A stretch of DNA of 64,000 bases from Escherichia coli (GTDB lineage Bacteria > Pseudomonadota > Gammaproteobacteria > Enterobacterales > Enterobacteriaceae), in assembly GCF_022846255.1 (NCBI RefSeq), contig NZ_AP025682.1. One strand, written 5' to 3'. Below are positions 696 through 38,904 of the stretch, one piece after another (the stretch's first letter is position 1; each line of letters opens with the position of its first letter). Under the pieces are notes generated by a model that was not told the DNA's origin, made no database searches, and worked only from the letters and a program-made list of their open reading frames with translations. The translations under genes were made by a program, and so were the position numbers.

Positions 696-2240
696 TTATT
701 CCACGATGAACAGCGGCTTACCAGTCATCTCTTGCGGGATTTCCATACCCATCAGCGACAACATGGTCGGCGCGATGTCAGAAAGTTTGCCGCCTTCAAC
801 CGCTTTCACGTTCTTATCACCAACGTAAATCAGCGGAACTGGCAGGTTGGTGTGTGCTGTGTGTGCCTGACCCGTTGCCGGATCGCGCATCTGTTCAGCG
901 TTACCGTGGTCAGCGGTGATCAGCAGTTGTCCACCCACGGACTCAACCGCTTTCGCGACTTCTTCCACGCAGTGATCCAGCGCTTCAACCGCTTTAACCG
1001 CCGCTTCCATCACCCCGGTGTGACCTACCATGTCGCCGTTCGGATAGTTACAGATAATGGTGTCGTATTTGCCGCTCTTGATTGCCGCAACCAGTTTTTC
1101 GGTCAGCTCTGCGGAGCTCATTTCCGGTTGCAGATCGTAGGTAGCCACTTTCGGTGAGTTGATCAGAATGCGATCTTCGCCTTTGAACGACTCTTCTACG
1201 CCACCGTTGAAGAAGAAAGTAACGTGGGCATATTTTTCGGTTTCGGAAATACGCAGCTGAGTTTTGTCGTTTTTCGCCATCCACTCGCCGAAGGTGTTAA
1301 CCAGGGAAGCGGGTGGGTAAGCCACTGCGGTTTTGATGTCGGCAGCGTATTCGGTCAGCATCACGAAATCGACGTTAACCACTTTCTTACGCGCGAAGCC
1401 ATCGAAATCAGCGTTCACGAAAGCACGAGTGATTTCACGCGCGCGGTCAGCACGGAAGTTCATGAAAATCAGCGCATCGCCGTCTTCCATTGCCGCATCT
1501 GGCTGACCTTCTGCACGAATAACGGTCGCTTTCACGAACTCGTCGTTTTCGTCGCGAGCATAAGCAGCCTGCAAACCGGCAACGGCGGTATCGGCCTGGA
1601 ACTCACCTTGCGCCAGAGTCAGCAGGTCATAAGCTTTTTCAACGCGATCCCAACGGTTATCGCGGTCCATCGCGTAGTAACGACCAATGATGGACGCTAC
1701 GCGGCCTTTACCCAGCGCGGCAAATTTCTCTTCGAATTTTTTCAGCGAGGATTCAGCACTGCGCGGCGGAGTGTCGCGACCGTCAAGGAATGCGTGTAGG
1801 TAGATTTTTTCTGCGCCGCGTTCAGCTGCCAGTTCTACCATCGCCATGATGTGATCTTCGTGGCTGTGTACACCACCTGCGGAGAGCAGACCCATAATGT
1901 GTACTGCTTTGCCTGCGTTTTTCGCTTTATCTACTGCACCAGTCAACACCGGATTAGCAAAGAAAGCGCGATCTTTGATTTCAACGTCCAGACGAGTCAG
2001 GTCCTGATACACGATGCGGCCGGCACCCAGGTTAACGTGGCCTACTTCGGAGTTGCCCATCTGACGGTCAGGCAGACCGACTTCCAGACCGGAAGCGTCG
2101 ATCAGGGTATGCGGACGATTGGCCCACAGTGCATCCATTACCGGGGTTTTAGCACTAAAAATGGCGTTATCCTGCTGTTCTTCGCGATAGCCATAGCCAT
2201 CCAGAATCACCAGTACCATAGGTTTTTTAGAAACCGACAT
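696..2240 (-). CDS. gpmM: 2,3-bisphosphoglycerate-independent phosphoglycerate mutase (514 aa)
   Basis: Track ORF 696..2384 contains [21 protein letters not shown]...; start moved to the internal ATG at 2238-2240 to give the known 514-aa length. Confidence 0.95.
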
Positions 2241-2484
2241 TGCGACAACCTCATACTCAAGAGTCAAAATTTGCGTAATTTTACTACAGCTGAATCGATA
2301 AAATAGCCTCTGAAGATCAAAATATACGACCGCTCGCGGCAAGCAGATGCCAGATTTACGCTTTTTTTTCGTAGCGCCCCGCAAAATTGCATTCCAGTTA
2401 ACGCGCTGGCTGTATTTGCCGCAACGCGCAGGTATACTCCTTTCCTGGTTTTTTTAATCACTACGTCGGGAGTTGTTACCCCCC

Positions 2485-2916
2485 ATGCAAGAAATTATGC
2501 AATTTGTTGGCCGTCATCCCATACTGAGTATCGCCTGGATCGCGTTACTGGTGGCGGTTCTTGTGACTACGTTTAAGAGCCTGACCTCGAAAGTGAAGGT
2601 GATTACTCGTGGTGAAGCTACGCGTCTGATCAACAAAGAAGACGCTGTGGTTGTGGATTTACGTCAGCGTGATGACTTCCGTAAAGGCCATATCGCAGGT
2701 TCTATCAACCTGTTGCCGAGCGAAATCAAAGCCAACAATGTTGGTGAGCTTGAGAAGCACAAAGACAAACCGGTTATCGTGGTAGATGGTTCTGGCATGC
2801 AGTGCCAGGAGCCTGCAAACGCGCTGACGAAAGCTGGTTTTGCGCAAGTATTCGTACTGAAAGAAGGCGTCGCTGGCTGGGCTGGCGAAAACTTGCCTTT
2901 GGTGCGCGGCAAATAA
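2485..2916 (+). CDS. yibN: Rhodanese-domain inner membrane protein YibN (143 aa)
   Basis: [25 protein letters not shown]... with a rhodanese fold; the track start at 2473 is a TTG, the ATG at 2485 gives the known length. Confidence 0.9.
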
Positions 2917-3056
2917 TTTACCTGTCGTCTTTCATGATGCAGGCCGTTAGCTGCAATTAGGCCCCCAGCGACTTATTGATATAAGCTTCTGGGGACACTC
3001 CATTTTGCTGCCGCCCTGCAACATGAAATTTCAGGGTAAAAAACAGGAGCTAATTT

Positions 3057-3308
3057 ATGGCCAATGTTGAAATCTATACCAAAGAAACCTGCCCGTATTG
3101 CCATCGTGCAAAAGCACTGCTGAGCAGCAAGGGCGTGAGTTTTCAGGAGTTGCCGATCGATGGCAATGCCGCTAAGCGTGAAGAGATGATCAAACGCAGT
3201 GGTCGCACCACGGTTCCACAGATTTTTATTGACGCACAGCACATTGGTGGCTGTGATGACTTGTATGCATTGGATGCACGTGGTGGACTGGATCCCCTGC
3301 TGAAATAA
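3057..3308 (+). CDS. grxC: Glutaredoxin 3 (83 aa)
   Basis: MANVEIYTKETCPYCHRAKALL... with the CPYC active site; AGGAG ribosome-binding site upstream. Confidence 0.97.
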   Translation: MANVEIYTKETCPYCHRAKALLSSKGVSFQELPIDGNAAKREEMIKRSGRTTVPQIFIDAQHIGGCDDLYALDARGGLDPLLK

Positions 3309-3371
3309 CGTGTGAACGTTGGCATTACATTGCGCAGTATTTTAAGGACAACACTTAAGGGTTTTCTACAC

Positions 3372-3839
3372 ATGTCAGAACAAAACAACACCGAAATGAC
3401 TTTCCAGATCCAACGTATTTATACCAAGGATATTTCTTTCGAAGCGCCGAACGCGCCGCACGTTTTCCAGAAAGATTGGCAACCAGAAGTTAAACTTGAT
3501 CTGGATACGGCATCTACTCAACTGGCAGATGACGTTTACGAAGTGGTACTGCGTGTTACCGTAACGGCCTCCCTGGGCGAAGAAACCGCGTTCCTGTGTG
3601 AAGTTCAGCAGGGCGGTATTTTCTCCATCGCGGGTATCGAAGGCACCCAGATGGCACATTGCCTGGGCGCATACTGCCCGAACATTCTGTTCCCGTATGC
3701 TCGTGAGTGCATCACCAGCATGGTATCCCGCGGTACATTCCCGCAACTGAACCTTGCGCCGGTTAACTTCGATGCGCTGTTCATGAACTATTTGCAGCAG
3801 CAGGCTGGCGAAGGTACTGAAGAACATCAGGATGCCTGA
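3372..3839 (+). CDS. secB: Protein-export chaperone SecB (155 aa)
   Basis: [32 protein letters not shown]...; the track ORF begins upstream, the internal ATG at 3372 gives the known length. Confidence 0.96.
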
Positions 3840-4858
3840 TGAACCAACGTAATGCTTCAATGACTGTGATCGGTGCCGGCTCGTACGGCACCGCTCTTGC
3901 CATCACCCTGGCAAGAAATGGCCACGAGGTTGTCCTCTGGGGCCATGACCCTGAACATATCGCAACGCTTGAACGCGACCGCTGTAACGCCGCGTTTCTC
4001 CCCGATGTGCCTTTTCCCGATACGCTCCATCTTGAAAGCGATCTCGCCACTGCGCTGGCAGCCAGCCGTAATATTCTCGTCGTCGTACCCAGCCATGTCT
4101 TTGGTGAAGTGCTGCGCCAGATTAAACCGCTGATGCGTCCTGATGCGCGTCTGGTGTGGGCGACCAAAGGGCTGGAAGCAGAAACCGGACGTCTGTTACA
4201 GGACGTGGCGCGTGAGGCCTTAGGCGATCAAATTCCGCTGGCGGTTATCTCTGGCCCAACGTTTGCGAAAGAACTGGCGGCAGGTTTACCGACGGCCATT
4301 TCGCTGGCCTCGACGGACCAGACCTTTGCCGATGACCTCCAGCAATTGCTGCACTGCGGCAAAAGTTTCCGCGTTTACAGCAACCCGGATTTCATTGGCG
4401 TGCAGCTTGGCGGCGCGGTGAAAAACGTCATTGCCATTGGCGCGGGGATGTCTGACGGTATCGGTTTTGGCGCGAATGCGCGTACGGCGCTGATCACCCG
4501 TGGACTGGCTGAAATGTCGCGTCTTGGCGCGGCGCTGGGTGCCGATCCTGCCACCTTTATGGGCATGGCGGGGCTGGGCGATCTGGTGCTTACCTGTACC
4601 GACAACCAGTCGCGTAACCGCCGTTTTGGCATGATGCTCGGTCAGGGCATGGATGTACAAAGCGCGCAGGAAAAGATAGGTCAGGTGGTGGAAGGCTACC
4701 GCAATACGAAAGAAGTCCGCGAACTGGCGCATCGCTTCGGCGTTGAAATGCCAATAACCGAGGAAATTTATCAAGTATTATATTGCGGAAAAAACGCGCG
4801 CGAGGCAGCATTGACTTTACTAGGTCGTGCACGCAAGGACGAGCGCAGCAGCCACTAA
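3839..4858 (+). CDS. gpsA: NAD(P)H-dependent glycerol-3-phosphate dehydrogenase (339 aa)
   Basis: [36 protein letters not shown]...; the ATG overlaps the secB stop (ATGA-type coupling). Confidence 0.97.
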
Positions 4859-4937
4859 ACCCAGGGAACCTTTGTTACCACTATGACCCGGCCCGCGCAG
4901 AACGGGCCGGTCATTATCTCATCGTGTGGAGTAAGCA

Positions 4938-5759
4938 ATGTCGTGTGAAGAACTGGAAATTGTCTGGAACAATATTAAAGCTGAAGCCAGAACGCTGGCG
5001 GACTGTGAGCCAATGCTGGCCAGTTTTTACCACGCGACGCTACTCAAGCACGAAAACCTTGGCAGTGCACTGAGCTACATGCTGGCGAACAAGCTGTCAT
5101 CGCCCATTATGCCGGCTATTGCTATCCGTGAAGTGGTGGAAGAAGCCTACGCCGCCGACCCGGAAATGATCGCCTCTGCGGCCTGTGATATTCAGGCGGT
5201 GCGTACCCGTGACCCGGCGGTGGATAAATACTCAACCCCGTTGCTATACCTGAAGGGTTTTCATGCTTTGCAGGCGTATCGCATCGGTCACTGGTTGTGG
5301 AATCAGGGCCGTCGCGCGCTGGCTATTTTTCTACAAAACCAGGTCTCTGTAACGTTCCAGGTTGATATTCACCCGGCAGCAAAAATTGGTCGCGGTATCA
5401 TGCTCGACCACGCGACAGGCATCGTCGTTGGTGAAACGGCGGTGATTGAAAACGACGTGTCGATTCTGCAATCCGTTACCCTTGGCGGTACGGGTAAATC
5501 TGGCGGAGACCGTCACCCGAAAATTCGTGAAGGCGTGATGATTGGCGCAGGCGCGAAAATTCTCGGTAATATTGAAGTTGGGCGCGGCGCGAAGATTGGC
5601 GCAGGTTCCGTGGTGCTGCAACCGGTGCCGCCGCACACTACTGCCGCTGGCGTTCCGGCACGCATTGTCGGCAAGCCGGATAGCGATAAACCGTCAATGG
5701 ATATGGATCAGCATTTCAACGGCATTAACCATACGTTTGAGTATGGTGATGGGATCTGA
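4938..5759 (+). CDS. cysE: Serine O-acetyltransferase (273 aa)
   Basis: MSCEELEIVWNNIKAEARTLADCEPMLASFYHATLLKHENLGSALSYMLANKL... with hexapeptide repeats. Confidence 0.97.
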   Translation: MSCEELEIVWNNIKAEARTLADCEPMLASFYHATLLKHENLGSALSYMLANKLSSPIMPAIAIREVVEEAYAADPEMIASAACDIQAVRTRDPAVDKYSTPLLYLKGFHALQAYRIGHWLWNQGRRALAIFLQNQVSVTFQVDIHPAAKIGRGIMLDHATGIVVGETAVIENDVSILQSVTLGGTGKSGGDRHPKIREGVMIGAGAKILGNIEVGRGAKIGAGSVVLQPVPPHTTAAGVPARIVGKPDSDKPSMDMDQHFNGINHTFEYGDGI

Positions 5760-5773
5760 CATTCTGTGATCGT

Positions 5774-5807
5774 GCCGGATGCGGCGTGAACGCCTTATCC
5801 GGCCTAC
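5774..5807. repeat. REP (repetitive extragenic palindrome) element between convergent cysE and trmL
   Basis: gccggatgcggcgtgaacgccttatccggcctac, the canonical enterobacterial REP core. Confidence 0.85.
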
Positions 5808-5813
5808 CGCATC

Positions 5814-6287
5814 TTAATCTCTCAACACCGCTCCCGGATATCCCAGCTGCCGCCAGGCTTCATACACCACGACCGACACCGCATTGGACAGGTTCATGCT
5901 GCGGCTGTCCGGCACCATTGGAATGCGAATTTTTTGTTCAGCGGGCAGGGCATCAAGAATGCTCGCTGGCAGGCCGCGTGTTTCCGGGCCGAACATCAGA
6001 TAATCGCCATCCTGATAGCTTACGGCGCTGTGAGCAGGCGTACCTTTCGTGGTGAGGGCAAACAGACGCTGGGGATTTTCTGCTTCGAGAAACGCGCGAT
6101 AGTCATGATGACGCGTAACGGCGGTAAACTCGTGATAGTCCAGCCCCGCGCGGCGCAGGCGCTTATCGTCCCAGGCAAATCCCATCGGTTCGATGATATG
6201 CAGACGAAAGCCGGTATTAGCGCAAAGACGGATGATGTTGCCAGTATTTGGCGGAATTTCTGGTTCGTAAAGTACGATGTTTAGCAT
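5814..6287 (-). CDS. trmL: tRNA (cytidine34/5-carboxymethylaminomethyluridine34-2'-O)-methyltransferase TrmL (157 aa)
   Basis: [37 protein letters not shown]... (SPOUT methyltransferase). Confidence 0.95.
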
Positions 6288-6359
6288 ACTGCCCCCTTAG
6301 TGCGGGGGCAGGATAGCAGAAAATTGGTGATTGGTACGGCCTTTTCCCCTCACCCCCAA

Positions 6360-7550
6360 CTATGCCGCATTCCCTTTCGCCATCGGAGCTAGTGCCGCAG
6401 GCAATTCTTTATCCAGCCCTTGCACCAGCGAATCTTGCGTAATTTCGCTAATCGATTTCGCGCCAGTCAGCGTCATCGCCACTTTCATCTCTTTTTCGAT
6501 CAGATTTAGCAGGTTAGCTACACCCGCCTGGCCCGCTGTTGCCAGCGCATACAGGAAAGCACGACCCAGCAGTACGGTGTCGGCACCGAGCGCAATCATA
6601 CGCACGACATCAAGCCCGTTACGTATTCCGCTATCCGCCAGAATGGCGATATCACCTTTCACCGCATCTGCAATAGCGGGCAACGCACGAGCGGAAGAGA
6701 GTACACCGTCCAGCTGGCGGCCACCGTGGTTAGAAACCACAATCCCATCAGCACCAAAACGTACTGCATCGCGCGCATCTTCCGGATCGAGGATCCCTTT
6801 GATCACCATCGGGCCATCCCAGAAATCGCGGATCCACTCAAGGTCTTTCCATGAGATGGACGGATCGAAGTTATTCCCCAGCCAGCCGATGTAATCTTCC
6901 AGTCCGGTCGGTTTGCCGAGATAAGCTGAGATATTACCTAAATCATGCGGACGACCGTTCAGGCCCACATCCCACGCCCATTGCGGATGCGTCACCGCCT
7001 GCAAATAGCGGCGCATTGCCGCGTTCGGGCCGCTCATCCCAGAATGCGCATCACGATAACGCGCTCCCGGTGTTGGCATATCCACGGTGAAAACCAGTGT
7101 CGAACAACCCGCTGCTTTTGCTCGCTCCAGTGCGTTACGCATAAAGCCGCGATCGCGCAGCACATAAAGCTGGAACCACATCGGACGTTTGATAGCCGGA
7201 GCCACTTCTTCAATCGGGCAAACGGAAACCGTCGAGAGAGTAAACGGAATGCCATGCGCATCCGCTGCTTTGGCAGCCTGAACTTCGCCGCGTCGCGCAT
7301 ACATGCCACACAAACCTACCGGACCTAGCGCCACCGGCATCGACAATTTCTCATTAAACAGCGTCGTTTCCAGGCTTAAGTCAGACATGTTTTTCAGAAT
7401 ACGCTGGCGCAGCGCCACTTCTGACAAATCTTCCACGTTGCGGCGCAGCGTGTATTCAGAATATGCACCCCCATCCATATAGTGGAACAGGAACGGCGGC
7501 AGAATGCGTTGCGCTGCGGCGCGATAATCGCTGGCTGCGGAAATAATCAT
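6360..7550 (-). CDS. lldD: L-lactate dehydrogenase, FMN-dependent (396 aa)
   Basis: [38 protein letters not shown]...; last gene of lldPRD. Confidence 0.97.
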
Positions 7551-8323
7551 GCGTTTTTCTCCCTCGAATGCTCATTATGGTCACCAGGCAGGCGGGTAAT
7601 GCGTGCATGGCGAGCCTGATCTTCATCGAATCGTTTCATGGTGGTGTGAACAAAGCTAAGGTGCGCCATCATTGCTTTACGCGCCCCGTCAGCATCACCG
7701 GCAAAAATGGCGTCAATGACTGCCTGATGTTGTTCGGTCAGCTGTGAAAAAACCGGGGGTACCAGATACATCCGCTGGCGGCTATGCTTCACGGAGGATT
7801 GCAGGACATCGAAGAAACCGCGCATGGTTTGCAGCAGCACGATGTTATGTGAGGCTTCGGCAATCGCCAGATGAAAACGAACGTCCGCTTGTGAGGCGAG
7901 ATCCGGGTCTTCACTTAGCGTTGCTTCAAAGCAAAGCTGAATCTTTTCTTTTTCGCCAGGTGTGGCGCGCATTGCCGCATGCCACGCGGTGCTGGCTTCA
8001 ATGGCGTAGCGGGCTTCCAGAATATCGAAACTGTAATCCGGATCATCGGCCATCAGCGTTTTCAGCGGCTGGACGATGTTTTGCTCCGACCATGTGTCAT
8101 GACGCCAGCGAATAAACGTCCCGCCGCCACGTCGACTGAGCAGCACACCTTCGCTTACCAGTTTCGCCAGCGCCTCGCGCAGTGAATTTCTCGACACGCC
8201 GAGTTGCATCGCCAGTTGACGTTCAGCGGGCAACTTCATGCCCGCTTCCAGGTTTTTTTCATCAATCAGCGCCCGCACACGATCGGCAACCTCGTCTGAC
8301 AGGCGTCTGGGTAAAACAATCAT
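7547..8323 (-). CDS. lldR: GntR-family L-lactate regulator LldR (258 aa)
   Basis: [55 protein letters not shown]...; start set at the internal ATG for the known length; overlaps the lldP stop by 1 nt and the lldD start by 4 nt. Confidence 0.93.
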
Positions 8324-9978
8324 TAAGGAATCATCCACGTTAAGACATAGGCCTGAAGCGTGGTGATCACGCCCACCATACAGGTGAAGATCAGGCTGTG
8401 TTTGACAGTAAAGCGGAACAAATCAGACTCTTTGCCCACCAGGCCTACCGCCGCACAGGCGATAGCGATAGATTGCGGAGAGATCATTTTGCCGGTGACA
8501 CCACCGGTGGTGTTGGCAGCAACCAGCAACAGGTCAGAAACGCCAATTTGTTGTGCGGCGGTAGCCTGCAAAGCGGCAAACAAAGCATTAGATGACGTAT
8601 CCGACCCGGTCAGGAATACCCCAAGCCAGCCGAGGAACGGCGAGAAGAAGGTGAATGCATGACCGGTGTGCGCCAGTGCCAGCGCCAGTGTTGATGACAA
8701 ACCGGAATAGTTCGAGATAAAGGCGAACGCCAGCACCATACCGATGGAGTAGATAGGCAGAGCCAGTTCTTTCAGCGTGCTGCCGAAGGTGCTGATAGCG
8801 TCAGATGGTTTCATCTTCAGCCAGACAATCGAGAGCAGGGCAGCAAAAAGAATGGCGGTACCGGTGGCAGAGAACCAGTCAAACTTAAACACGGCGGCAT
8901 ACGCTGTCGCTTCGCTGACCACTGGCGGCATACGGGCAACCAGTTTATCGAGGTACGGCACCGGAATGTTGATCACCCACTCATACAGCGCACCGCCTGA
9001 AGCGAACAGGGCTTTAAACGGCGGGATACTCCACAGCGTTACGGTGGCGGTCAGGAACAGAAACGGTGTCCAGGCGCGCAGCACCTGACCTGCCGTGTAA
9101 CCTGTGTGAGCCAGCGTCATATCAACCTGTGACGCCCCCAAGTCACCGAAGCGGAATACGCGCACTGGTTGCCAGCGTTTGAGGAACAGCGTCAGGCAGA
9201 GCAGTGATACCAGCGAAGAGATAATGTCTGGCAGTTCCGGCCCAATGAAGTTAGAGCTGAGGTATTGAGCAATGGCAAACGAACCACCTGCAACCACGAC
9301 CGCAGGCCACGTCTCTTTGATACCGCGCCAACCGTCCATAATCGCCATGATCCAGAACAGCACGATAATGGTCATAAACGGCAGCTGACGCCCCACCATC
9401 TGACCAATCTCAAAGCTGTCGATGCCTGTTACCTGCCCGGCGACCAGAATCGGAATACCCATCGCGCCAAATGCCACTGGTGCGGTGTTAACAATCAGGC
9501 ACAGTCCGGCGGCGTAGAGTGGTTTAAAGCCCAGACCGACCAGCAATGCGGCGGTAATTGCTACCGGTGCGCCAAAGCCTGCGGCTCCTTCAAGGAAAGC
9601 GCCGAAACAGAAACCGACGATCAGCATTTGCAGGCGCTGGTCAGGGGTTATCGAAAGAATAGACGAGCGAATGATGTCAAACTGCCCGGTTTTCACCGAG
9701 ATCTTATAGACGAACACCGCTGCAATAATGATCCACGCGATGGGCCACAACCCGTAGAAGAAGCCATAAACCACCGAGGCCAGCGCGTTAGCGACCGGCA
9801 TTTTATAGAACAGCAAAGCCACGGCAAGGGCGATTGCCACCGTCCATGAGGCGGCGACGTATCCTTTCAGTTTGAGCTTAATCAGCGCAAAGAAGAAAAA
9901 CAGGATGGGAAGCGATGCTATCAGGCTGGAAAGCCAGATATTCCCGGCGGGATCGTAGTTTTGTTGCCAGAGATTCAT
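8323..9978 (-). CDS. lldP: L-lactate permease (551 aa)
   Basis: [40 protein letters not shown]...; multi-pass membrane protein; start chosen for the known length. Confidence 0.95.
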
Positions 9979-10176
9979 TGCAGGTCTCCTGCAGTCCACA
10001 CACGCCGTGTAATGAGTCTGTTGCTCATCTCCTTGTCACACGTTGTGTAAAAGTGGCACTGCCAATTGTGTTGTGTAGGGATAATGACAATGGATAGTTA
10101 ACTAAATGTTATGCATTAGCAACATTGATGTGAGTTTTAATTGGGGAATTGTGAACCAGAGGTCAGATAAGCGAAG

Positions 10177-10193
10177 AATTGGTAGGGCCAATT
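10177..10193. promoter_or_regulatory. Candidate LldR/PdhR-type operator in the lldP promoter region
   Basis: Inverted repeat aattggtagggccaatt (AATTGG-N5-CCAATT), resembling the FadR-subfamily GntR operator consensus AATTGGT-N3-ACCAATT; about 200 bp upstream of the lldP start. Confidence 0.5.
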
Positions 10194-10217
10194 CTGGGAG
10201 AGGGGTAATGAAGAAAA

Positions 10218-10243
10218 GGGCAATTCCCATCAGAGAATTGCCC
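10218..10243. promoter_or_regulatory. Second palindrome in the lldP upstream region (possible second operator)
   Basis: gggcaattc-N8-gaattgccc inverted repeat; function inferred from position only. Confidence 0.3.
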
Positions 10244-10269
10244 TCAGATTGTTGATCTGGTGCGCCTTA

Positions 10270-10362
10270 TCTTGCCGGATGCGGCGTGAACGCCTTATCC
10301 GGCCTACAGGGTAGTGCTGAATCACCCCGTAGGCCTGATAAGCGTAGCGCATCAGGCAATGT
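10270..10362. repeat. Pair of REP elements (BIME-like) between the adhesin 3' end and the lldP promoter
   Basis: gccggatgcggcgtgaacgccttatccggcctaca followed by an inverted copy, gtaggcctgataagcgtagcgcatcaggcaatg. Confidence 0.85.
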
Positions 10363-10389
10363 GGCGTTTACCCATTTGTTAATGGATCA

Positions 10390-21236: not shown

Positions 21237-21452
21237 AGATATTTTCTTACGGCGTTCACCTGATGTGATCTACAGCATGTTATGCCTTCGTCATGAAATC
21301 GTTATGTAACTAAGCAACTCATCACCTCTTAAAATTATTCTTTGGTGTTATGGCGAGAATCGCGAACCCGGATTATTGTCAAAATATCAGCCTGACTCCC
21401 TTCTGGCTGCCAGCCAAAAAACAACACTGATAAACGTGAATCCGAGGCAGAT

Positions 21453-21815
21453 ATGTTTCTAAACTATTTCGCGTTGGGAGTGCTGATCTTCGTCTTTCTG
21501 GTGATTTTTTATGGAATCATCGCGATACATGACATCCCTTATCTGATTGCCAAAAAGCGCAACCATCCCCATGCTGACGCTATTCATACGGCGGGCTGGG
21601 TGAGCCTGTTTACTCTGCATGTTATCTGGCCGTTCCTGTGGATCTGGGCGACGCTCTATCAACCGGAGCGCGGCTGGGGTATGCAGTCACATGTTGCGTC
21701 GCAGGAGAAAACGACTGACGCGGAAATCGCCGCACTTTCTGACCGGATTTCCCGGCTGGAGCACCAACTCGCCGCCGAGAAAAAGACTGACTATTCCACG
21801 TTCCCGGAGATCTAA
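21453..21815 (+). CDS. yibI: DUF3302 inner membrane protein YibI (120 aa)
   Basis: [53 protein letters not shown]... Confidence 0.9.
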
Positions 21816-21817
21816 TA

Positions 21818-22954
21818 ATGGATCTATTGATTGTTTTAACTTACGTGGCGCTGGCGTGGGCGGTCTTTAAAATCTTCCGCATTCCGGTGAATCAGTGGAC
21901 GCTGGCGACGGCGGCGCTGGGAGGCGTGTTTCTGGTGAGTGGTTTGATTTTGTTGATGAACTACAACCACCCTTACACTTTTACCGCGCAAAAGGCAGTG
22001 ATAGCGATCCCCATCACGCCACAGGTGACGGGAATTGTTACTGAAGTCACCGACAAAAATAATCAGCTTATTCAGAAGGGCGAGGTGCTTTTTAAGCTCG
22101 ACCCGGTTCGTTACCAGGCGCGAGTTGACAGGCTTCAGGCTGACCTGATGACGGCGACGCATAATATAAAGACGCTGCGCGCGCAGCTCACTGAAGCGCA
22201 GGCCAACACCACCCAGGTTTCAGCGGAGCGCGACCGTCTGTTTAAAAATTATCAACGTTATCTGAAAGGCAGCCAGGCGGCGGTGAATCCGTTCTCGGAA
22301 CGTGATATCGACGATGCGCGGCAAAATTTCCTCGCGCAGGATGCGCTGGTGAAAGGCTCGGTGGCGGAGCAGGCGCAGATCCAGAGCCAGCTCGACAGTA
22401 TGGTTAACGGCGAGCAATCGCAGATTGTGAGCTTAAGAGCGCAACTTACTGAAGCAAAATATAACCTTGAGCAGACCGTCATTCGCGCACCGAGCAATGG
22501 CTACGTCACTCAGGTACTGATCCGCCCAGGTACATACGCCGCTGCCTTGCCGCTGCGTCCGGTGATGGTCTTCATCCCCGAGCAAAAACGGCAAATTGTC
22601 GCCCAATTTCGGCAAAACTCGCTGTTACGTCTGAAACCCGGCGATGATGCGGAAGTGGTGTTTAACGCGCTACCTGGGCAGGTGTTTCACGGCAAACTGA
22701 CCAGTATTTTACCTGTCGTGCCAGGCGGTTCTTATCAGGCGCAGGGGGTATTGCAATCATTAACGGTCGTGCCCGGCACGGACGGTGTGCTGGGAACCAT
22801 TGAACTGGACCCTAACGATGATATCGATGCCTTACCCGACGGCATTTACGCCCAGGTAGCAGTTTACTCCGACCATTTCAGCCATGTTTCGGTGATGCGG
22901 AAGGTGCTGCTGAGAATGACCAGTTGGATGCATTATCTTTATTTGGATCATTGA
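21818..22954 (+). CDS. yibH: HlyD-family membrane fusion protein YibH (378 aa)
   Basis: [42 protein letters not shown]... with a long coiled-coil periplasmic region; 3 bp downstream of yibI. Confidence 0.9.
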
Positions 22955-23024
22955 GACTTGTATCACCTGTGTTTTGCGCGAGCCTGAGCCATACTGATAT
23001 TTTTCCTCGCACAAAGGACTCGGC

Positions 23025-23633
23025 ATGAAACTCGTCGGTAGCTACACCAGCCCGTTTGTACGCAAACTTTCTATTCTGTTGTTAGAAAAGGGCATAACGT
23101 TCGAATTTATTAATGAACTGCCCTATAACGCGGATAACGGCGTGGCGCAATTTAACCCGTTAGGAAAAGTACCGGTACTGGTGACCGAAGAGGGCGAATG
23201 CTGGTTTGATTCACCGATCATCGCTGAATATATTGAATTAATGAATGTTGCTCCGGCGATGTTGCCGCGCGATCCGCTGGAGTCGTTGCGGGTGCGCAAA
23301 ATTGAGGCACTGGCGGATGGCATTATGGATGCCGGGCTGGTATCGGTGCGTGAACAGGCGCGTCCGGCGGCGCAGCAGTCTGAAGATGAATTGTTACGTC
23401 AGCGTGAGAAAATCAACCGCAGTCTGGATGTGCTGGAAGGATATCTGGTCGATGGCACACTCAAAACCGATACGGTCAATCTGGCGACTATCGCCATTGC
23501 CTGTGCCGTCGGATATCTCAATTTCCGCCGCGTTGCGCCAGGCTGGTGTGTCGACCGCCCACACTTAGTCAAACTGGTCGAAAACCTGTTTAGCCGCGAA
23601 AGTTTTGCTCGCACCGAACCGCCAAAGGCTTGA
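23025..23633 (+). CDS. yibF: Glutathione S-transferase-like protein YibF (202 aa)
   Basis: [74 protein letters not shown]... Confidence 0.93.
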
Positions 23634-23730
23634 TGCGCGATATGTCCTCCTGACCCATCTCACGTTACAATCCGTGGTTATGTTAAACGCCCTTCTCCGT
23701 GTGAGAGGGCCTTGATCAGCCAGGTTTCCT

Positions 23731-25122
23731 ATGACAACCGAAACGCGTTCCCTCTATAGTCAACTTCCGGCTATTGATCGCTTATTGCGCGATAGCTCCT
23801 TCCTTTCTTTGCGTGATACTTATGGTCACACCCGCGTGGTGGAATTGCTGCGTCAGATGCTTGACGAAGCGCGAGAAGTGATTCGTGACAGCCAGACGCT
23901 GCCCGCGTGGTGTGAAAACTGGGCGCAAGAAGTCGATGCCCGGTTGACGAAAGAGGCGCAAAGCGCGCTGCGTCCGGTAATCAACCTGACAGGAACCGTG
24001 CTGCATACCAACCTTGGGCGAGCTTTACAGGCGGAAGCCGCGGTGGAAGCCGTTACGAAGGCTATGCGTTCGCCAGTGACCCTCGAGTACGATCTGGACG
24101 ACGCCGGACGCGGACATCGCGATCGGGCGCTGGCGCAGCTGCTGTGCCGTATTACGGGGGCGGAAGATGCCTGTATCGTTAATAACAATGCGGCGGCGGT
24201 GTTATTGATGTTGGCGGCCACTGCCAGCGGGAAAGAGGTGGTGGTTTCTCGCGGCGAACTGGTGGAGATTGGCGGCGCGTTTCGTATTCCCGATGTTATG
24301 CGTCAGGCAGGATGCACCCTACACGAAGTAGGGACCACCAACCGCACGCACGCGAATGATTATCGTCAGGCGGTGAATGAAAATACCGCACTGTTGATGA
24401 AAGTACATACCAGTAACTACAGCATTCAGGGGTTCACCAAAGCGATAGATGAAGCGGAACTGGTGGCGCTCGGCAAAGAACTGGATGTTCCAGTGGTGAC
24501 TGATTTAGGCAGTGGCTCGCTGGTCGATCTTAGCCAGTACGGTTTGCCGAAAGAGCCAATGCCGCAGGAGTTGATTGCGGCGGGCGTCAGTCTGGTGAGC
24601 TTCTCCGGCGACAAGCTGTTAGGCGGGCCGCAGGCAGGAATTATTGTTGGTAAAAAAGAAATGATCGCCCGCCTGCAAAGCCACCCGCTGAAGCGTGCAT
24701 TACGCGCGGATAAAATGACCCTCGCGGCGCTGGAAGCCACGTTGCGTCTTTATTTACACCCTGAAGCTCTGAGTGAAAAATTACCGACCCTGCGCCTGCT
24801 TACCCGCAGCGCAGAGGTCATTCAAATCCAGGCACAACGTTTACAGGCTCCCCTTGCCGCACATTACGGCGCGGAGTTTGCGGTACAGGTTATGCCATGT
24901 CTTTCGCAGATCGGCAGTGGTTCGCTGCCGGTTGATCGCCTGCCGAGCGCGGCATTAACGTTTACCCCCCATGATGGACGCGGTAGCCACCTTGAGTCAT
25001 TAGCCGCCCGCTGGCGTGAATTGCCAGTGCCGGTGATTGGTCGTATTTATGACGGACGATTGTGGCTGGATTTACGCTGCCTTGAAGATGAGCAACGTTT
25101 TTTGGAGATGTTGTTGAAATGA
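23731..25122 (+). CDS. selA: L-seryl-tRNA(Sec) selenium transferase (463 aa)
   Basis: [48 protein letters not shown]... Confidence 0.96.
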
Positions 25123-26963
25123 TTATTGCGACTGCCGGACACGTTGACCACGGCAAAACAACCTTGTTGCAGGCGATTACGGGCGTAAATGCCGACCGTC
25201 TGCCGGAAGAAAAAAAGCGCGGCATGACCATCGATCTCGGCTATGCCTACTGGCCGCAGCCGGATGGTCGCGTGCCTGGTTTTATCGACGTACCCGGTCA
25301 TGAAAAGTTTCTTTCCAACATGCTGGCGGGCGTTGGTGGTATCGATCACGCGCTGTTGGTGGTGGCGTGCGATGACGGTGTGATGGCACAGACCCGTGAG
25401 CATCTGGCGATTTTGCAGCTGACCGGTAACCCGATGCTGACAGTGGCGCTGACCAAAGCCGATCGCGTGGACGAAGCGCGTGTTGATGAGGTTGAACGCC
25501 AGGTAAAGGAGGTGCTGCGGGAATACGGTTTTGCTGAGGCAAAACTGTTTATCACCGCAGCAACCGAAGGTCGGGGAATTGATGCCCTGCGCGAGCATCT
25601 GCTTCAGTTACCAGAACGTGAACACGCCAGCCAACATAGTTTCCGCCTCGCGATCGACCGCGCATTTACCGTAAAAGGTGCCGGGCTGGTCGTCACCGGT
25701 ACGGCGTTAAGCGGGGAAGTGAAAGTAGGCGATTCACTCTGGCTGACTGGTGTGAATAAACCGATGCGCGTGCGTGCGCTGCATGCGCAAAATCAGCCAA
25801 CAGAAACTGCCCATGCCGGGCAGCGTATCGCGCTTAACATCGCGGGTGATGCGGAAAAAGAGCAGATTAACCGTGGCGACTGGCTGCTTGCCGATGTGCC
25901 GCCGGAGCCGTTCACACGGGTGATTGTCGAGCTTCAAACCCATACACCGCTGACCCAGTGGCAGCCGCTGCATATTCACCACGCCGCCAGCCACGTTACG
26001 GGACGCGTTTCGCTGCTGGAAGATAACCTTGCCGAGCTGGTGTTCGACACGCCGCTGTGGCTGGCGGATAACGATCGCATAGTGCTGCGCGATATCTCGG
26101 CCCGCAACACGCTGGCGGGGGCGCGTGTGGTGATGCTTAACCCGCCGCGTCGCGGTAAGCGTAAGCCGGAATATCTGCAATGGCTGGCGTCTCTTGCACG
26201 GGCGCAGAGCGATGCCGATGCGTTATCTGTTCATCTGGAACGCGGCGCGGTTAACCTTGCGGATTTCGCCTGGGCACGGCAGCTCAACGGCGAAGGGATG
26301 CGCGAACTGCTGCAACAGCCTGGCTATATTCAGGCTGGTTACAGCTTGTTGAATGCGCCAGTTGCCGCCCGCTGGCAGCGGAAAATTCTCGACACATTAG
26401 CGACTTATCATGAGCAACATCGCGATGAACCTGGTCCTGGGCGCGAACGTCTGCGACGTATGGCGTTGCCAATGGAAGATGAAGCGCTGGTACTGTTGCT
26501 GATTGAAAAGATGCGCGAAAGCGGCGACATCCACAGTCATCACGGCTGGCTGCATCTGCCGGATCATAAAGCGGGCTTCAGTGCAGAGCAGCAGGCCATC
26601 TGGCAAAAAGCAGAGCCGCTGTTTGGTGACGAGCCATGGTGGGTGCGTGACCTGGCAAAAGAGACGGGAACCGACGAGCAGGCAATGCGCCTGACGCTAC
26701 GCCAGGCGGCGCAACAGGGGATAATTACTGCGATCGTCAAAGATCGTTATTACCGTAACGATCGGATTGTCGAATTTGCCAATATGATCCGAGATCTCGA
26801 TCAGGAATGCGGTTCAACCTGCGCGGCGGATTTCCGCGATCGCTTAGGCGTAGGCCGCAAGCTGGCAATTCAGATTCTGGAATATTTTGACCGTATTGGC
26901 TTTACGCGTCGTCGTGGAAATGATCATTTATTGCGCGACGCATTATTATTTCCGGAAAAATAA
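25119..26963 (+). CDS. selB: Selenocysteine-specific translation elongation factor SelB (614 aa)
   Basis: [47 protein letters not shown]... (GTPase G1 motif GHVDHGKT); start overlaps the selA stop by 4 nt. Confidence 0.96.
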
Positions 26964-27024
26964 GGAAATGATTAATTCATAATAAATATGAATTAATACA
27001 AAATTTCTTATTAATGTTAAGAAG

Positions 27025-27058
27025 GCACGTTATTTGATGAATGTAACGTGCTTTTTAT
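27025..27058 (+). terminator. Rho-independent terminator downstream of selAB
   Basis: Stem gcacgtta / taacgtgc around an 11-nt loop, followed by ctttttatt, in an AT-rich spacer. Confidence 0.6.
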
Positions 27059-27153
27059 TAAAAATATTTTAATAAACGGTAATGTTGATCATATTTTCAA
27101 ATGAAAATCCTCAGTAAGCTGCCCGCCCTTTTTTACACTTTCAGGAGTGTGTT

Positions 27154-28305
27154 ATGGCAGCTTCAACCTTTTTTATTCCTTCCGTGAATGTTATTGGTGC
27201 TGATTCATTGAATGATGCAATGAATATGATGGCAGATTATGGATTTACCCGTACCTTAATTGTCACCGACAACATGTTAACGAAATTGGGTATGGCGGGT
27301 GATGTGCAAAAAGCACTGGAAGAACGCAATATTTTTAGCGTTATTTATGATGGCACCCAACCTAACCCCACCACGGAAAACGTCGCTGCAGGTTTGAAAT
27401 TACTTAAAGAAAATAATTGCGATAGCGTGATTTCCTTAGGCGGTGGTTCTCCACACGACTGCGCAAAAGGTATTGCGCTGGTTGCAGCCAACGGCGGTGA
27501 CATCCGCGATTATGAAGGCGTTGACCGCTCTGCAAAACCGCAGCTGCCGATGATCGCCATCAACACCACGGCGGGTACGGCCTCTGAAATGACTCGTTTC
27601 TGCATCATCACTGACGAAGCGCGTCACATCAAAATGGCGATTGTGGATAAACATGTAACTCCGCTGCTTTCTGTCAATGACTCCTCTCTGATGATCGGTA
27701 TGCCGAAGTCACTGACCGCCGCAACGGGTATGGATGCCTTAACGTACGCTATCGAAGCGTATGTTTCTATTGCCGCCACGCCGATCACTGACGCTTGTGC
27801 ACTGAAAGCCGTGACCATGATTGCCGAAAACCTGCCGTTAGCCGTTGAAGATGGCAGCAATGCTAAAGCGCGTGAAGCAATGGCTTATGCCCAGTTCCTC
27901 GCCGGTATGGCGTTCAATAATGCTTCTCTGGGTTATGTTCATGCGATGGCGCACCAGCTGGGCGGTTTCTACAACCTGCCACACGGTGTATGTAACGCCG
28001 TTTTGCTGCCGCATGTTCAGGTATTCAACAGCAAAGTCGCCGCTGCACGTCTGCGTGATTGTGCCGCTGCAATGGGCGTGAACGTGACAGGTAAAAACGA
28101 CGCGGAAGGTGCTGAAGCCTGCATTAACGCCATCCGTGAACTGGCGAAGAAAGTGGATATCCCGGCAGGCCTACGCGACCTGAACGTGAAAGAAGAAGAT
28201 TTCGCGGTTCTGGCGACTAATGCCCTGAAAGATGCCTGCGGCTTTACTAACCCGATCCAGGCAACTCACGAAGAAATTGTGGCGATTTATCGCGCAGCGA
28301 TGTAA
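27154..28305 (+). CDS. yiaY: Iron-containing (group III) alcohol dehydrogenase YiaY (383 aa)
   Basis: [58 protein letters not shown]... Confidence 0.95.
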
Positions 28306-28320
28306 TCATCATTTCCACAA

Positions 28321-28348
28321 CGGCTGGCGAGTTGTCAGCCGCTTTTTC
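28321..28348 (+). terminator. Probable intrinsic terminator of yiaY
   Basis: cggctggcgagttgtcagccg hairpin followed by ctttttc. Confidence 0.55.
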
Positions 28349-28350
28349 AA

Positions 28351-28428
28351 CTATCTCAAAACTTGCTTTTTTTGAGATAGTTTCTCTTTCCTGCTATACA
28401 CTATCTCAATATTGCGCTTTTTTGAGAT
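28351..28428. promoter_or_regulatory. Two copies of a ~30-bp palindrome immediately upstream of the fic gene (candidate operators)
   Basis: ctatctcaaaacttgctttttttgagatag (28351-28380) and ctatctcaatattgcgcttttttgagata (28401-28428); each is the inverted repeat ctatctcaa-N11/12-ttgagata(g); the second ends 7 bp before the fic ATG. Confidence 0.5.
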
Positions 28429-28434
28429 AAGCAC

Positions 28435-29730
28435 ATGGCTATCAAATCACCTCCCGGACTTATTCCTTTATCACACTTATCGGGTGAGGAACTCCTGGCC
28501 CACCTGCGCTTTAACCGGGTTACCGATGAAAAAGGACGTTATCTGCCTTTTGATGAGTTGCAGTACCGCATCAAAAAAGGAGAAAACGTCGATGTGGCGT
28601 GGACGCTTACCCGTCTGGCGCGCAACGCGGCGATCCAACGAATTAATTATTGCAATGAAGCGGGTGAACAGGCCGGATTCAACATTACCCCGGTGATTGC
28701 AGAAGCGTGCGAGCTTGTCGACAAACGTGCTACCGCGCTGGCGCTGAAAGATCAGACTGAACGGTTACGCGGGGCCGGAGCCGAGTTAAGCCAGTTACGC
28801 CTGGAAGAGCCGATCACCAGCTCCCAGCTGGAAGGTGCGAATACTACAACGCTGGTGGCGAGAAAAATGCTGGAAACAGGGCGGTCGCCACGCACTGAAG
28901 ACGAGCATATGATTGCGGGAAATGCCCGGCTGATGGCGGAAATTCCGCACTTACTCGCAGAACCGCTGACACCTGCGCTTATTCGCCAGTTACATGCCAT
29001 TGGTATGGGTGGAATCAATGACGCGAAATATCGTCCGGGAGAATTTCGTGAAACAGATGATGTTGTGATCGCCGACTATGATGGCAATATAGTGCATCAA
29101 CCGCCCGCTGCGGCATTGTTACCGGAACGGCTGGAAAAAGTTTGCCAGTGGTTAAACAGCCATGAAGGGTATATTCATCCGTTGGTCCGTGCCTGCATTC
29201 TGCATTTTATGCTGGCCCATGAACATCCGTTTCGGGATGGCAACGGGCGCACCAGTCGGGCGCTGTTTTACTGGTATATGCTGAAATCGGGCTACGATGT
29301 CTTTAAATATATTTCCATCAGCCGTTTGCTTCATGCTGCACCGGTCAAATATGCCGCCAGCTACCAGTACACTGAATCAGATGGTATGGATCTGACTTAT
29401 TTCCTTGAATATCAGGCGGGTGTCATTAAACGTGCTCTGCAAAACTGGCAGCAGCATATCGATGAAATTACACAACGAAGCGCAAAACTCGATAGTGTGC
29501 TGTTTAGCTCTGGTGTGCTTAAACGCCTGAATCCGCGCCAGGTAACGCTCCTGAATGTGATGCTCGCCAATCCGGGGAAAGAGTACACAGTTGCTGAAAT
29601 TAGCGCGAGCCTGGGCGTCTCTGATAATACGGCTCGAGCTGATTTACGGACAATTGTTAAAGAAGGATTCGCGCAAGAGAAAAGAATTAATAACCAGCAA
29701 GCAGTGTACGTCGCACACTACCCGCTGTAG
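28435..29730 (+). CDS. Fic-domain protein (431 aa), class II (internal inhibitory motif), with C-terminal winged-helix-like domain
   Basis: Canonical Fic active-site motif [14 protein letters not shown] (HPFx[D/E]GNGRxxR); upstream SSQLEG matches the inhibitory-helix motif [S/T]xxxE[G/N]; C-terminal segment ...[29 protein letters not shown]... looks like a helix-turn-helix. Confidence 0.85.
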
Positions 29731-29837
29731 CTTTTGCCCGTAAATTCGTGATAGCCGTCGTAAAGCTGTTACCGGCTGGCGAAGATTTCGCCAGTCACGT
29801 CTACCCTTGTTATACCTCACACCGCAAGGAGACGATC

Positions 29838-31376
29838 ATGACCAATAATCCCCCTTCAGCACAGATTAAGCCCGGCGAGTATGGTTTCCCCCTCAAATTA
29901 AAAGCCCGCTACGACAACTTTATCGGTGGCGAATGGGTAGCGCCTGCCGATGGCGAGTATTACCAGAACCTGACGCCGGTGACCGGGCAGCTACTGTGCG
30001 AAGTGGCGTCTTCGGGCAAACGAGACATCGATCTGGCGCTGGATGCTGCGCATAAAGTGAAAGATAAATGGGCGCACACCTCGGTGCAGGATCGCGCGGC
30101 GATTCTGTTTAAGATTGCCGATCGAATGGAACAAAACCTTGAACTTTTAGCGACGGCAGAAACCTGGGATAACGGCAAACCCATTCGCGAAACCAGTGCT
30201 GCCGACGTGCCGCTGGCGATTGATCATTTTCGCTATTTCGCCTCGTGTATTCGGGCGCAGGAAGGTGGGATCAGTGAAGTGGATAGCGAAACCGTGGCCT
30301 ATCATTTCCATGAACCGTTAGGCGTGGTGGGGCAGATTATCCCGTGGAACTTCCCGCTGCTGATGGCGAGCTGGAAAATGGCCCCCGCGCTGGCGGCGGG
30401 CAACTGTGTGGTGCTGAAACCCGCACGTCTTACTCCGCTTTCTGTACTGCTGCTAATGGAAATCGTCGGTGATTTACTGCCGCCAGGGGTGGTGAACGTG
30501 GTCAATGGCGCAGGTGGGGAAATTGGCGAATATCTGGCGACCTCGAAACGCATCTCCAAAGTGGCGTTTACTGGCTCAACGGAAGTGGGCCAACAAATTA
30601 TGCAATACGCCACGCAAAACATTATTCCGGTGACGCTGGAGCTGGGCGGCAAATCGCCAAATATCTTCTTTGCTGATGTGATGGATGAAGAAGATGCCTT
30701 TTTCGATAAAGCGCTGGAAGGCTTTGCACTGTTTGCCTTTAACCAGGGCGAAGTTTGCACCTGTCCAAGCCGTGCTTTAGTGCAGGAGTCTATCTACGAA
30801 CGCTTTATGGAACGCGCTATCCGCCGTGTCGAAAGCATTCGCAGCGGTAACCCGCTCGACAGCGTGACGCAAATGGGCGCGCAGGTTTCTCACGGGCAAC
30901 TGGAAACCATCCTCAACTACATTGATATCGGTAAAAAAGAGGGCGCTGATGTGCTCACCGGCGGGCGACGCAAGCTGCTGGAAGGCGAACTGAAAGACGG
31001 CTACTACCTCGAACCGACGATTCTGTTTGGTCAGAACAATATGCGCGTGTTCCAGGAGGAGATTTTTGGCCCGGTGCTGGCGGTAACCACCTTCAAAACG
31101 ATAGAAGAAGCGCTGGAGCTGGCGAACGATACGCAATATGGCCTGGGCGCGGGCGTCTGGAGCCGCAACGGTAATCTGGCCTATAAGATGGGGCGCGGCA
31201 TTCAGGCTGGGCGCGTGTGGACCAACTGTTATCACGCTTACCCGGCACATGCGGCGTTTGGCGGCTACAAACAATCAGGCATTGGCCGCGAAACCCACAA
31301 AATGATGCTTGAGCATTACCAGCAAACCAAGTGCCTGCTGGTGAGCTACTCGGATAAACCGTTGGGGCTGTTCTGA
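29838..31376 (+). CDS. aldB: Aldehyde dehydrogenase B (512 aa)
   Basis: [51 protein letters not shown]...; the track ORF is extended upstream, start set at the ATG at 29838. Confidence 0.95.
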
Positions 31377-37983: not shown

Positions 37984-38904
37984 TTAACGAGATTCATTCA
38001 GAGAGTGAATGCCGTTGCGTAATATTTCGATGCGATGGTGCACATCAGCCGTCGCATTTATTTCCAGTAGCTTGATCCCAGCAAAATGCAATGTTGACGA
38101 TTCTGCTACATTAAATAACTCGCGAACATGATCTGTGGTCATCAGGCTTTCTGCGCAGAATGGTGCAAACGGTGCGTGTAAATCCTGCCATTCGCCGTAT
38201 GCCCCGTTTAGCGTCGTACCAGAGAACATTAACGCGCCGAGTTTTCCGGCTTGTTTCGCCATTTGGGTGTGGGCCAGCGGCAGCGTTGTATTGCGCCCTT
38301 CAATGGCAGAGCGCGCCCAGTTGATACAGATGCTGATGTCATAATCGGTAATAACTTCCAGCACATTTTCTAAAGGCAAAAAGCCTTTTCGGGGGGAAGA
38401 AGATGTCATGGCGTCGCAGTGTTCCAGCACCAGCTTGCACGGCCAGTCCCAACTGGCGATTTCTTTCAATGAGTGGGCAAAAGCGTCCGTCGCCTGCATA
38501 ACATTAGGATTCGTTGCTAACGGTGCAGCCTGGAGCTCCAGTGCGAGCACTTTATTAGCCTGCAATGCGTTGATTTTATTGAACAGGTGGCGATAGTACG
38601 CCACGCAGGCCTGGCGCTGTTCTTCATCACTGGAGGCGAGACCAAACCCGCTGTTTTCGCTGCGGCGACGCATGGTTTCCATCACTGCGGTGACGACAAA
38701 TTTCCAGCTCTCTGGCGTATGACGGAGTAACCATTGATCGCCCAGCGGGTGAAAATTTTCCAGGCAAGGTTGTTCCAGCCCCAAAATGTCTGGAGTCTCA
38801 GATAATTGTCGCCAGAAATCCTTCTCTTCCTCTTCACTTCTTTGGTGAAAAGAAGGTGCACAGGGATACGCGCCGATAATATAACCGGCATTATTCGTTT
38901 TCAT
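37984..38904 (-). CDS. Uncharacterised 306-aa protein inside the yiaK-sgbE operon, between yiaL and yiaM; no confident family assignment
   Basis: Uninterrupted ORF starting [60 protein letters not shown]... with GGAG 8 nt upstream of the ATG; 22 bp downstream of yiaL, same strand; no signal peptide or transmembrane segment evident; not part of the K-12 operon as I recall it. Confidence 0.75.

Follow-up and report, generated by a model that had tools for sequence, protein, structure and literature searches.

Nucleotide-level structure of an RhsA-free yibH-yibF junction in Escherichia coli, and evidence that its short spacer is the original arrangement

Strains of Escherichia coli without RhsA were reportedly described by the group of C. 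W. Hill (Feulner et al. in 1990, J Bacteriol 172:446, and a review by Hill et al. in 1994), and in the comparison of K-12 with an RhsA-less strain a short unrelated sequence is said to replace an element of about 8.2 kb. Nothing of substance separates the locus analysed here from those strains, and the 32 bp and 8,249 bp determined below would match that reported description. A text search of the literature found no paper linking RhsA with a 32-bp replacement. In K-12 the RhsA element, made up of rhsA and downstream core-extension fragments, occupies the same site, and the sequence studied here is the allele without the element. Presence/absence polymorphism at yibH-yibF is already published: excerpts from Jackson, Thomas, Parkhill and Thomson (2009, BMC Genomics 10:584, PMC2935791) describe an rhs locus, numbered 10, flanked by yibF and yibH, report zero rhs genes in CFT073, 536, APEC O1 and E2348/69, and infer for position 10 an origin later than the branching-off of Rhs-poor pathogenic strains such as CFT073 and 536. 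The flanking genes are the same in the present sequence, which clusters with the rhs-less kind of strain described in those excerpts; the nucleotide-level breakpoints and the 32-bp replacement, which the excerpts do not give, are supplied by the present analysis. The type VI secretion system (T6SS) auxiliary effector islands linked to vgrG or rhs form a further point of comparison. Occupied sites contain toxins linked to Rhs or VgrG, together with immunity-like genes and ISAs1/H-repeat fragments, whereas the present sequence has none of their genes and is bare chromosome backbone. Beyond the work of Hill's group, the analysis adds evidence from outgroups for the ancestral status of the short sequence, and the frequencies of both arrangements in 5,426 genomes.

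The window is the whole stretch of E. coli DNA that was analysed (64,000 nucleotides). In it, yibH is directly followed by yibF in the same orientation, and the spacer that separates the two is short (Table 1). The 378-aa product was assigned to YibH, its NCBIfam matches being EmrA/HlyD-type periplasmic adaptors, and the 202-aa product gave a full-length match to NF007682, the equivalog for YibF (E 7e-123). The gene next after yibF is selA (TIGR00474, E 2.4e-190), and selA and selB lie on the same strand as yibF. In the annotation of the closest complete genomes the order is mtlA (on the minus strand), yibI, yibH, yibF, selA, selB, yiaY. An earlier note on this DNA had placed the end of yibH at 22954 and the start of yibF at 23025, 70 bp apart; the ORF list gives the same limits, and the gene identities were confirmed. 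Searching the whole window by tblastn with K-12 RhsA detected no Rhs sequence. The 70-bp spacer matched no family in an Rfam scan, its predicted RNA fold was no more stable than that of shuffled sequence (z = 0.12), and a tRNA scan of window positions 15000-31000 found no tRNA.

Table 1. Features of the yibH-yibF junction (window coordinates) and of the second yibIH-like gene pairs (locus coordinates)
Feature	Coordinates	Strand	Description
yibH	21818..22954	+	378 aa; stop codon 22952-22954; HlyD-family membrane-fusion/adaptor protein (ORF list)
yibH-yibF intergenic spacer	22955..23024	+	70 bp; RhsA-free junction
32-bp segment ACTTGTATCACCTGTGTTTTGCGCGAGCCTGA	22956..22987	+	Absent from K-12, which has the RhsA island there instead
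yibF leader common to K-12	22988..23024	+	Contains the CATACT box and the Shine-Dalgarno sequence
yibF	23025..23633	+	202 aa; glutathione S-transferase-like (ORF list)
Second yibIH-like pair, locus L005	17704-19166		
Second yibIH-like pair, locus L007 (MOD1-EC7003)	9454-10916		
Second yibIH-like pair, locus L009	17455-18917		

In the genome of MG1655 (NC_000913.3), yibF (b3592) is located at 3761347-3761955 and yibH (b3597) at 3770243-3771379, with 8,287 bp between them that hold rhsA (b3593), yibA (b3594), the pseudogene yibJ (b3595), yibG (b3596), yibS, yibW, yibV and yibU. Window positions 22400-23600 were aligned to this region using BLAST, which gave two blocks: 22400-22955 corresponds to K-12 3770797-3770242 (97.8% identity) and 22988-23600 to K-12 3761992-3761380 (98.4% identity). 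Homology with K-12 on the yibH side thus stops one base past the stop codon and restarts on the yibF side 37 bp ahead of the ATG. At the same place, the 32-bp segment of the window faces 8,249 bp in K-12 (NC_000913 3761993-3770241). The best local match of these 32 bp to the inside of the K-12 island was at chance level (score 13). No duplicated bases, target-site duplication or scar were seen in side-by-side alignments of the junctions, and a repeat search of the K-12 island found no terminal direct or inverted repeats; the long repeats inside it are duplicated core-end fragments, as expected for displaced Rhs tips. The two alleles are therefore related by replacement; a clean insertion that left a target-site scar does not account for the difference. 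The flanks of the window differ from K-12 by about 2-3%, which is ordinary divergence between lineages.

The earlier note had described the junction as the unoccupied configuration of the K-12 RhsA site, with rhsA and its associated genes (given as b3593-b3596) between yibF and yibH. The MG1655 annotation agrees in placing rhsA there and, with the direct alignment, bears out the unoccupied state; the gene numbers are correct but omit four later-annotated genes (yibS, yibW, yibV and yibU). The alignment of the junction with MG1655 that it proposed yields exact breakpoints at 22955 and 22988 and no target-site scar. Its expression “empty site” holds in that RhsA is lacking, but the site is not a clean empty one, since 32 bp that have no K-12 counterpart stand in place of the 8,249 bp.

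Frequencies of the two arrangements were determined in 5,426 complete E. coli genomes. The compact junction was found in 1,521 of them with a 1,070-bp query and in 1,522 (28%, all phylogroups counted together) with a 100-bp query centred on the spacer, sampled matches to the latter being at least 97% identical. Among the genomes with this junction are CFT073, O25b:H4-ST131, LF82, an APEC O2:K1:H7 strain and ATCC 25922. The K-12-type junction between yibF and rhs was present in 3,731 genomes and that between the island and yibH in 3,698, so that the site is occupied in about 3,700 genomes (about 69%). Neither the compact nor the K-12-type junction occurs in approximately 170 genomes, a number obtained by subtraction, of which two were sampled; in one of these, QL57EC, an IS1-associated deletion takes mtl, yibIH and the start of yibF, and the other is RMDEC465, whose island is described below. 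The strain difference at yibH-yibF is thus real but common. Constancy of the breakpoints was judged from matches sampled across the rankings. Partial matches of the 100-bp compact query start at query base 48, which is window position 22988, in all of those sampled; the query for the yibF/rhs junction breaks at base 401 in all sampled matches but one (base 403), and the query for the island/yibH junction at base 400. The closest genomes to the window over 24 kb, among the matches listed, are A0 34/86, LF82 and NRG 857C (99.3-99.6% identity), which, like CFT073, belong to phylogroup B2. The best-match genome, Z0117EC0036, is 99.5% identical to the window over 31 kb and differs in the autotransporter gene.

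Outgroup loci were collected by a YibF-guided scan using one genome per species, followed by tblastn mapping of the neighbouring genes; the scan recovered no locus from E. fergusonii, E. marmotae or Salmonella. Within the genus, yibH lies directly upstream of yibF at a distance of 61-92 bp in two further E. coli, in Escherichia whittamii and in Escherichia sp. E1V33, and the same range of spacing was found in Citrobacter amalonaticus, another Citrobacter, Kluyvera cryocrescens, Pluralibacter, Huaxiibacter, Lelliottia and uncultured Enterobacteriaceae. In all, at least six genera other than Escherichia have the compact junction. The spacer length of exactly 70 bp is shared with E. whittamii, Escherichia sp. 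E1V33 and the two other E. coli, and the spacer of the window is collinear with those of E. whittamii and E1V33, no bases being missing or extra. In these two the 32-bp segment is identical at 30-31 of 32 positions, and in C. amalonaticus it is recognisable and partly conserved. No RhsA match was detected in the compact outgroup loci. Because both the 32 bp and the compact junction are kept in outgroups, the compact junction carrying the 32 bp is ancestral on these sequence comparisons, and the insertion behind the K-12 form would consequently have removed the 32 bp. Polarity information is not provided by E. albertii, since its upstream neighbour is a different one: in NBRC 107761 (locus 89-838) the place of yibH, 57 bp upstream of yibF, is taken by a MOSC/YiiM-like gene.

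The neighbourhood shows other variation among the outgroups. Citrobacter koseri has the same yibH-yibF adjacency, likewise with no RhsA-like sequence detected, but with a 174-bp spacer; in strain NCTC10786 (locus 9827-10000) this spacer includes an additional palindromic stretch, rich in GC and resembling a REP-type insertion. Even the yibI-yibH pair varies: Enterobacter, Kosakonia, Buttiauxella, Mangrovibacter, Siccibacter and some Citrobacter have mtlA at about 430-900 bp from yibF, and no yibIH separates the two. E. whittamii, Escherichia sp. MOD1-EC7003 and C. amalonaticus possess a second yibIH-like pair (about 73-78% identical), located 6-8 kb downstream of yibF (Table 1).

The explanation that we favour, with a probability of about 0.88, is that the 70-bp spacer is the original yibH-yibF region, that the K-12 form derives from one old insertion, and that the lineage of the window was never occupied. 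By a single illegitimate insertion, an ancestor from which most non-B2 E. coli descend would have gained an island of T6SS-type effectors (in K-12, the 8,249-bp RhsA element), placed one base beyond the yibH stop codon. This insertion would have removed 32 bp of the original spacer and spared the 37 bp next to the yibF start codon, including the ribosome-binding site and the CATACT box. The interior of the island would later have turned over with its junctions unchanged. The window lineage, which clusters with B2 strains, would never have received the island; in the window, yibI-yibH-yibF-selA-selB lie head to tail on one strand.

Secondary loss, in which an RhsA-bearing ancestor was made compact either by recombination with an island-free donor across the flanks or by deletion, is an improbable alternative. 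Where flanks are conserved, E. coli readily undergoes homologous replacement, and the roughly 170 genomes rearranged otherwise at the site, such as QL57EC with its IS1-associated deletion, also speak for it. A hint of an older or mobile history comes from Escherichia sp. MOD1-EC7003 (locus 1-2962), in which 147 bp of K-12-type island end adjoin yibF, followed beyond the island end by unrelated ORFs and an ISAs1-type fragment; the presence of this end in a genome not labelled E. coli implies that the island is older than assumed or has crossed lineage boundaries. Against secondary loss, however, a simple deletion cannot remake 32 bp that match outgroup species at 30-31 of 32 positions, and no remnant of an island end or of Rhs is left at the junction of the window. 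The excerpts from Jackson et al. (2009) also weigh against it, with four related strains that have zero rhs genes and a post-split origin inferred for locus 10. As a separate candidate, a deletion scar left after RhsA loss was considered and rejected, there being no residual island or Rhs sequence and no loss of flanking backbone relative to the outgroups.

Occupied sites were compared between K-12 and RMDEC465 (NZ_CM177019.1 3525000-3560000; locus 967-17698). The latter carries at yibF-yibH a 16.7-kb island without Rhs, which contains two vgrG genes, an M35 metallopeptidase, a GH19 protein, an S-type pyocin with an immunity gene, a muramidase and ISAs1 fragments; an island of this VgrG type is present at the site in 4 of the 5,426 genomes. 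The VgrG-type and RhsA-type islands have the same end sequences (about 295 bp on the yibH side and about 185 bp on the yibF side) and join the chromosome at the same nucleotides. The Rhs proteins annotated at the site carry different toxin tips. Neither of the two islands examined (K-12 and RMDEC465) has an annotated integrase, only ISAs1 fragments, and no att-like repeats were found at the site.

The earlier note had called the site an integration hotspot, which the data do not sustain: the sampled matches show one K-12-type junction pair, with no target-site duplication, terminal repeat, tRNA or annotated integrase. That the spacer is a recurrent attachment-type hotspot, entered repeatedly and independently by polymorphic-toxin cassettes, is the least probable of the explanations weighed and a very unlikely one, for although two different cargoes (RhsA-type in about 3,700 genomes, VgrG-type in 4) and differing toxin tips occur at the site, both cargoes sit between the same island ends at the same junction nucleotides, the usual marks of attachment-site integration are lacking, and the outgroup genera are without insertions at the junction, C. 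koseri with its longer spacer being the one exception. Shared ends and shared junction nucleotides for both cargoes argue instead for one insertion followed by exchange inside the island. A single insertion into the original short spacer is likewise what the ancestral compact form points to when taken with the one junction pair seen in all occupied forms, cargo having then been exchanged internally. A single acquisition followed by cargo exchange agrees with the published C-terminal displacement model.

The leader of yibF that is common to K-12 and the window has a Shine-Dalgarno sequence 6 nt ahead of the ATG (AAGGA, 23014-23018) and, further upstream, the conserved box CATACT (22990-22995). 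The octamer GCCATACT (22988-22995) is conserved in the Escherichia sequences, two Citrobacter species, Kluyvera and an unclassified Enterobacteriaceae isolate, and variants of it are found in other genera, for example TCCATACT and TCCATAAT. The CATACT box is a possible candidate for the -10 element of a yibF promoter. A scan for consensus sigma-70 sites reported no promoter in the spacer, and by eye no -35 element matching at 4/6 or better can be seen. When the spacer was inspected for a terminator, a hairpin followed by a T-run could be read by eye in some other genera (UBA7338, C. koseri), but it is degenerate in Escherichia. Both the RhsA junction and the E. albertii arrangement break immediately before GCCATACT, as selection for a minimal yibF expression unit may cause, although two cases prove nothing. 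Two further proposals are speculative and, in our estimation, rather unlikely: the island ends may act as fixed homology arms for swapping T6SS cargoes of Rhs or VgrG type, and, separately, the insertion may have cut yibF-selAB from read-through from yibIH.

Several other features were observed in the window. A 431-aa gene of the Fic/DOC family lies between yiaY and aldB (28435-29730, + strand); in the RhsA-bearing QL57EC, yiaY and aldB are only 164 bp apart, which makes the Fic/DOC gene another strain-variable insertion in the window. A DUF4862-family gene (37984-38904, - strand; 306 aa, Pfam E 5e-94) is located between yiaL and yiaM, within the yiaK-yiaO 2,3-diketo-L-gulonate cluster; K-12 is not known to have a gene between yiaL and yiaM. 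An ORF of 1,543 aa (10390-15021, - strand) aligns with a YadA-like (trimeric autotransporter) gene of the closest genome and is the most divergent part of the window, its repeat region being 76-87% identical with many indels, as against about 99.5% elsewhere. In the mtlD-mtlA spacer (18972-18992), the alignment with K-12 and that with Z0117EC0036 are each interrupted, leaving an overlap of 21 bp, and this spacer is longer in K-12 (by about 114 bp) and in Z0117EC0036 (by about 325 bp) than in the window; the variation in length probably reflects different numbers of repetitive elements.

The importance of the junction is slight beyond annotation, where it marks the window as belonging to an RhsA-free lineage that clusters with B2 strains. 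Its nucleotide-exact description (32 bp against 8,249 bp, without target duplication) makes a classic polymorphism usable as a typing marker, and replacement without duplication recalls that Rhs islands differ from conventional mobile elements. If the insertion did cut yibF off from upstream read-through, compact and K-12-type strains would regulate yibF, and possibly selAB, differently.
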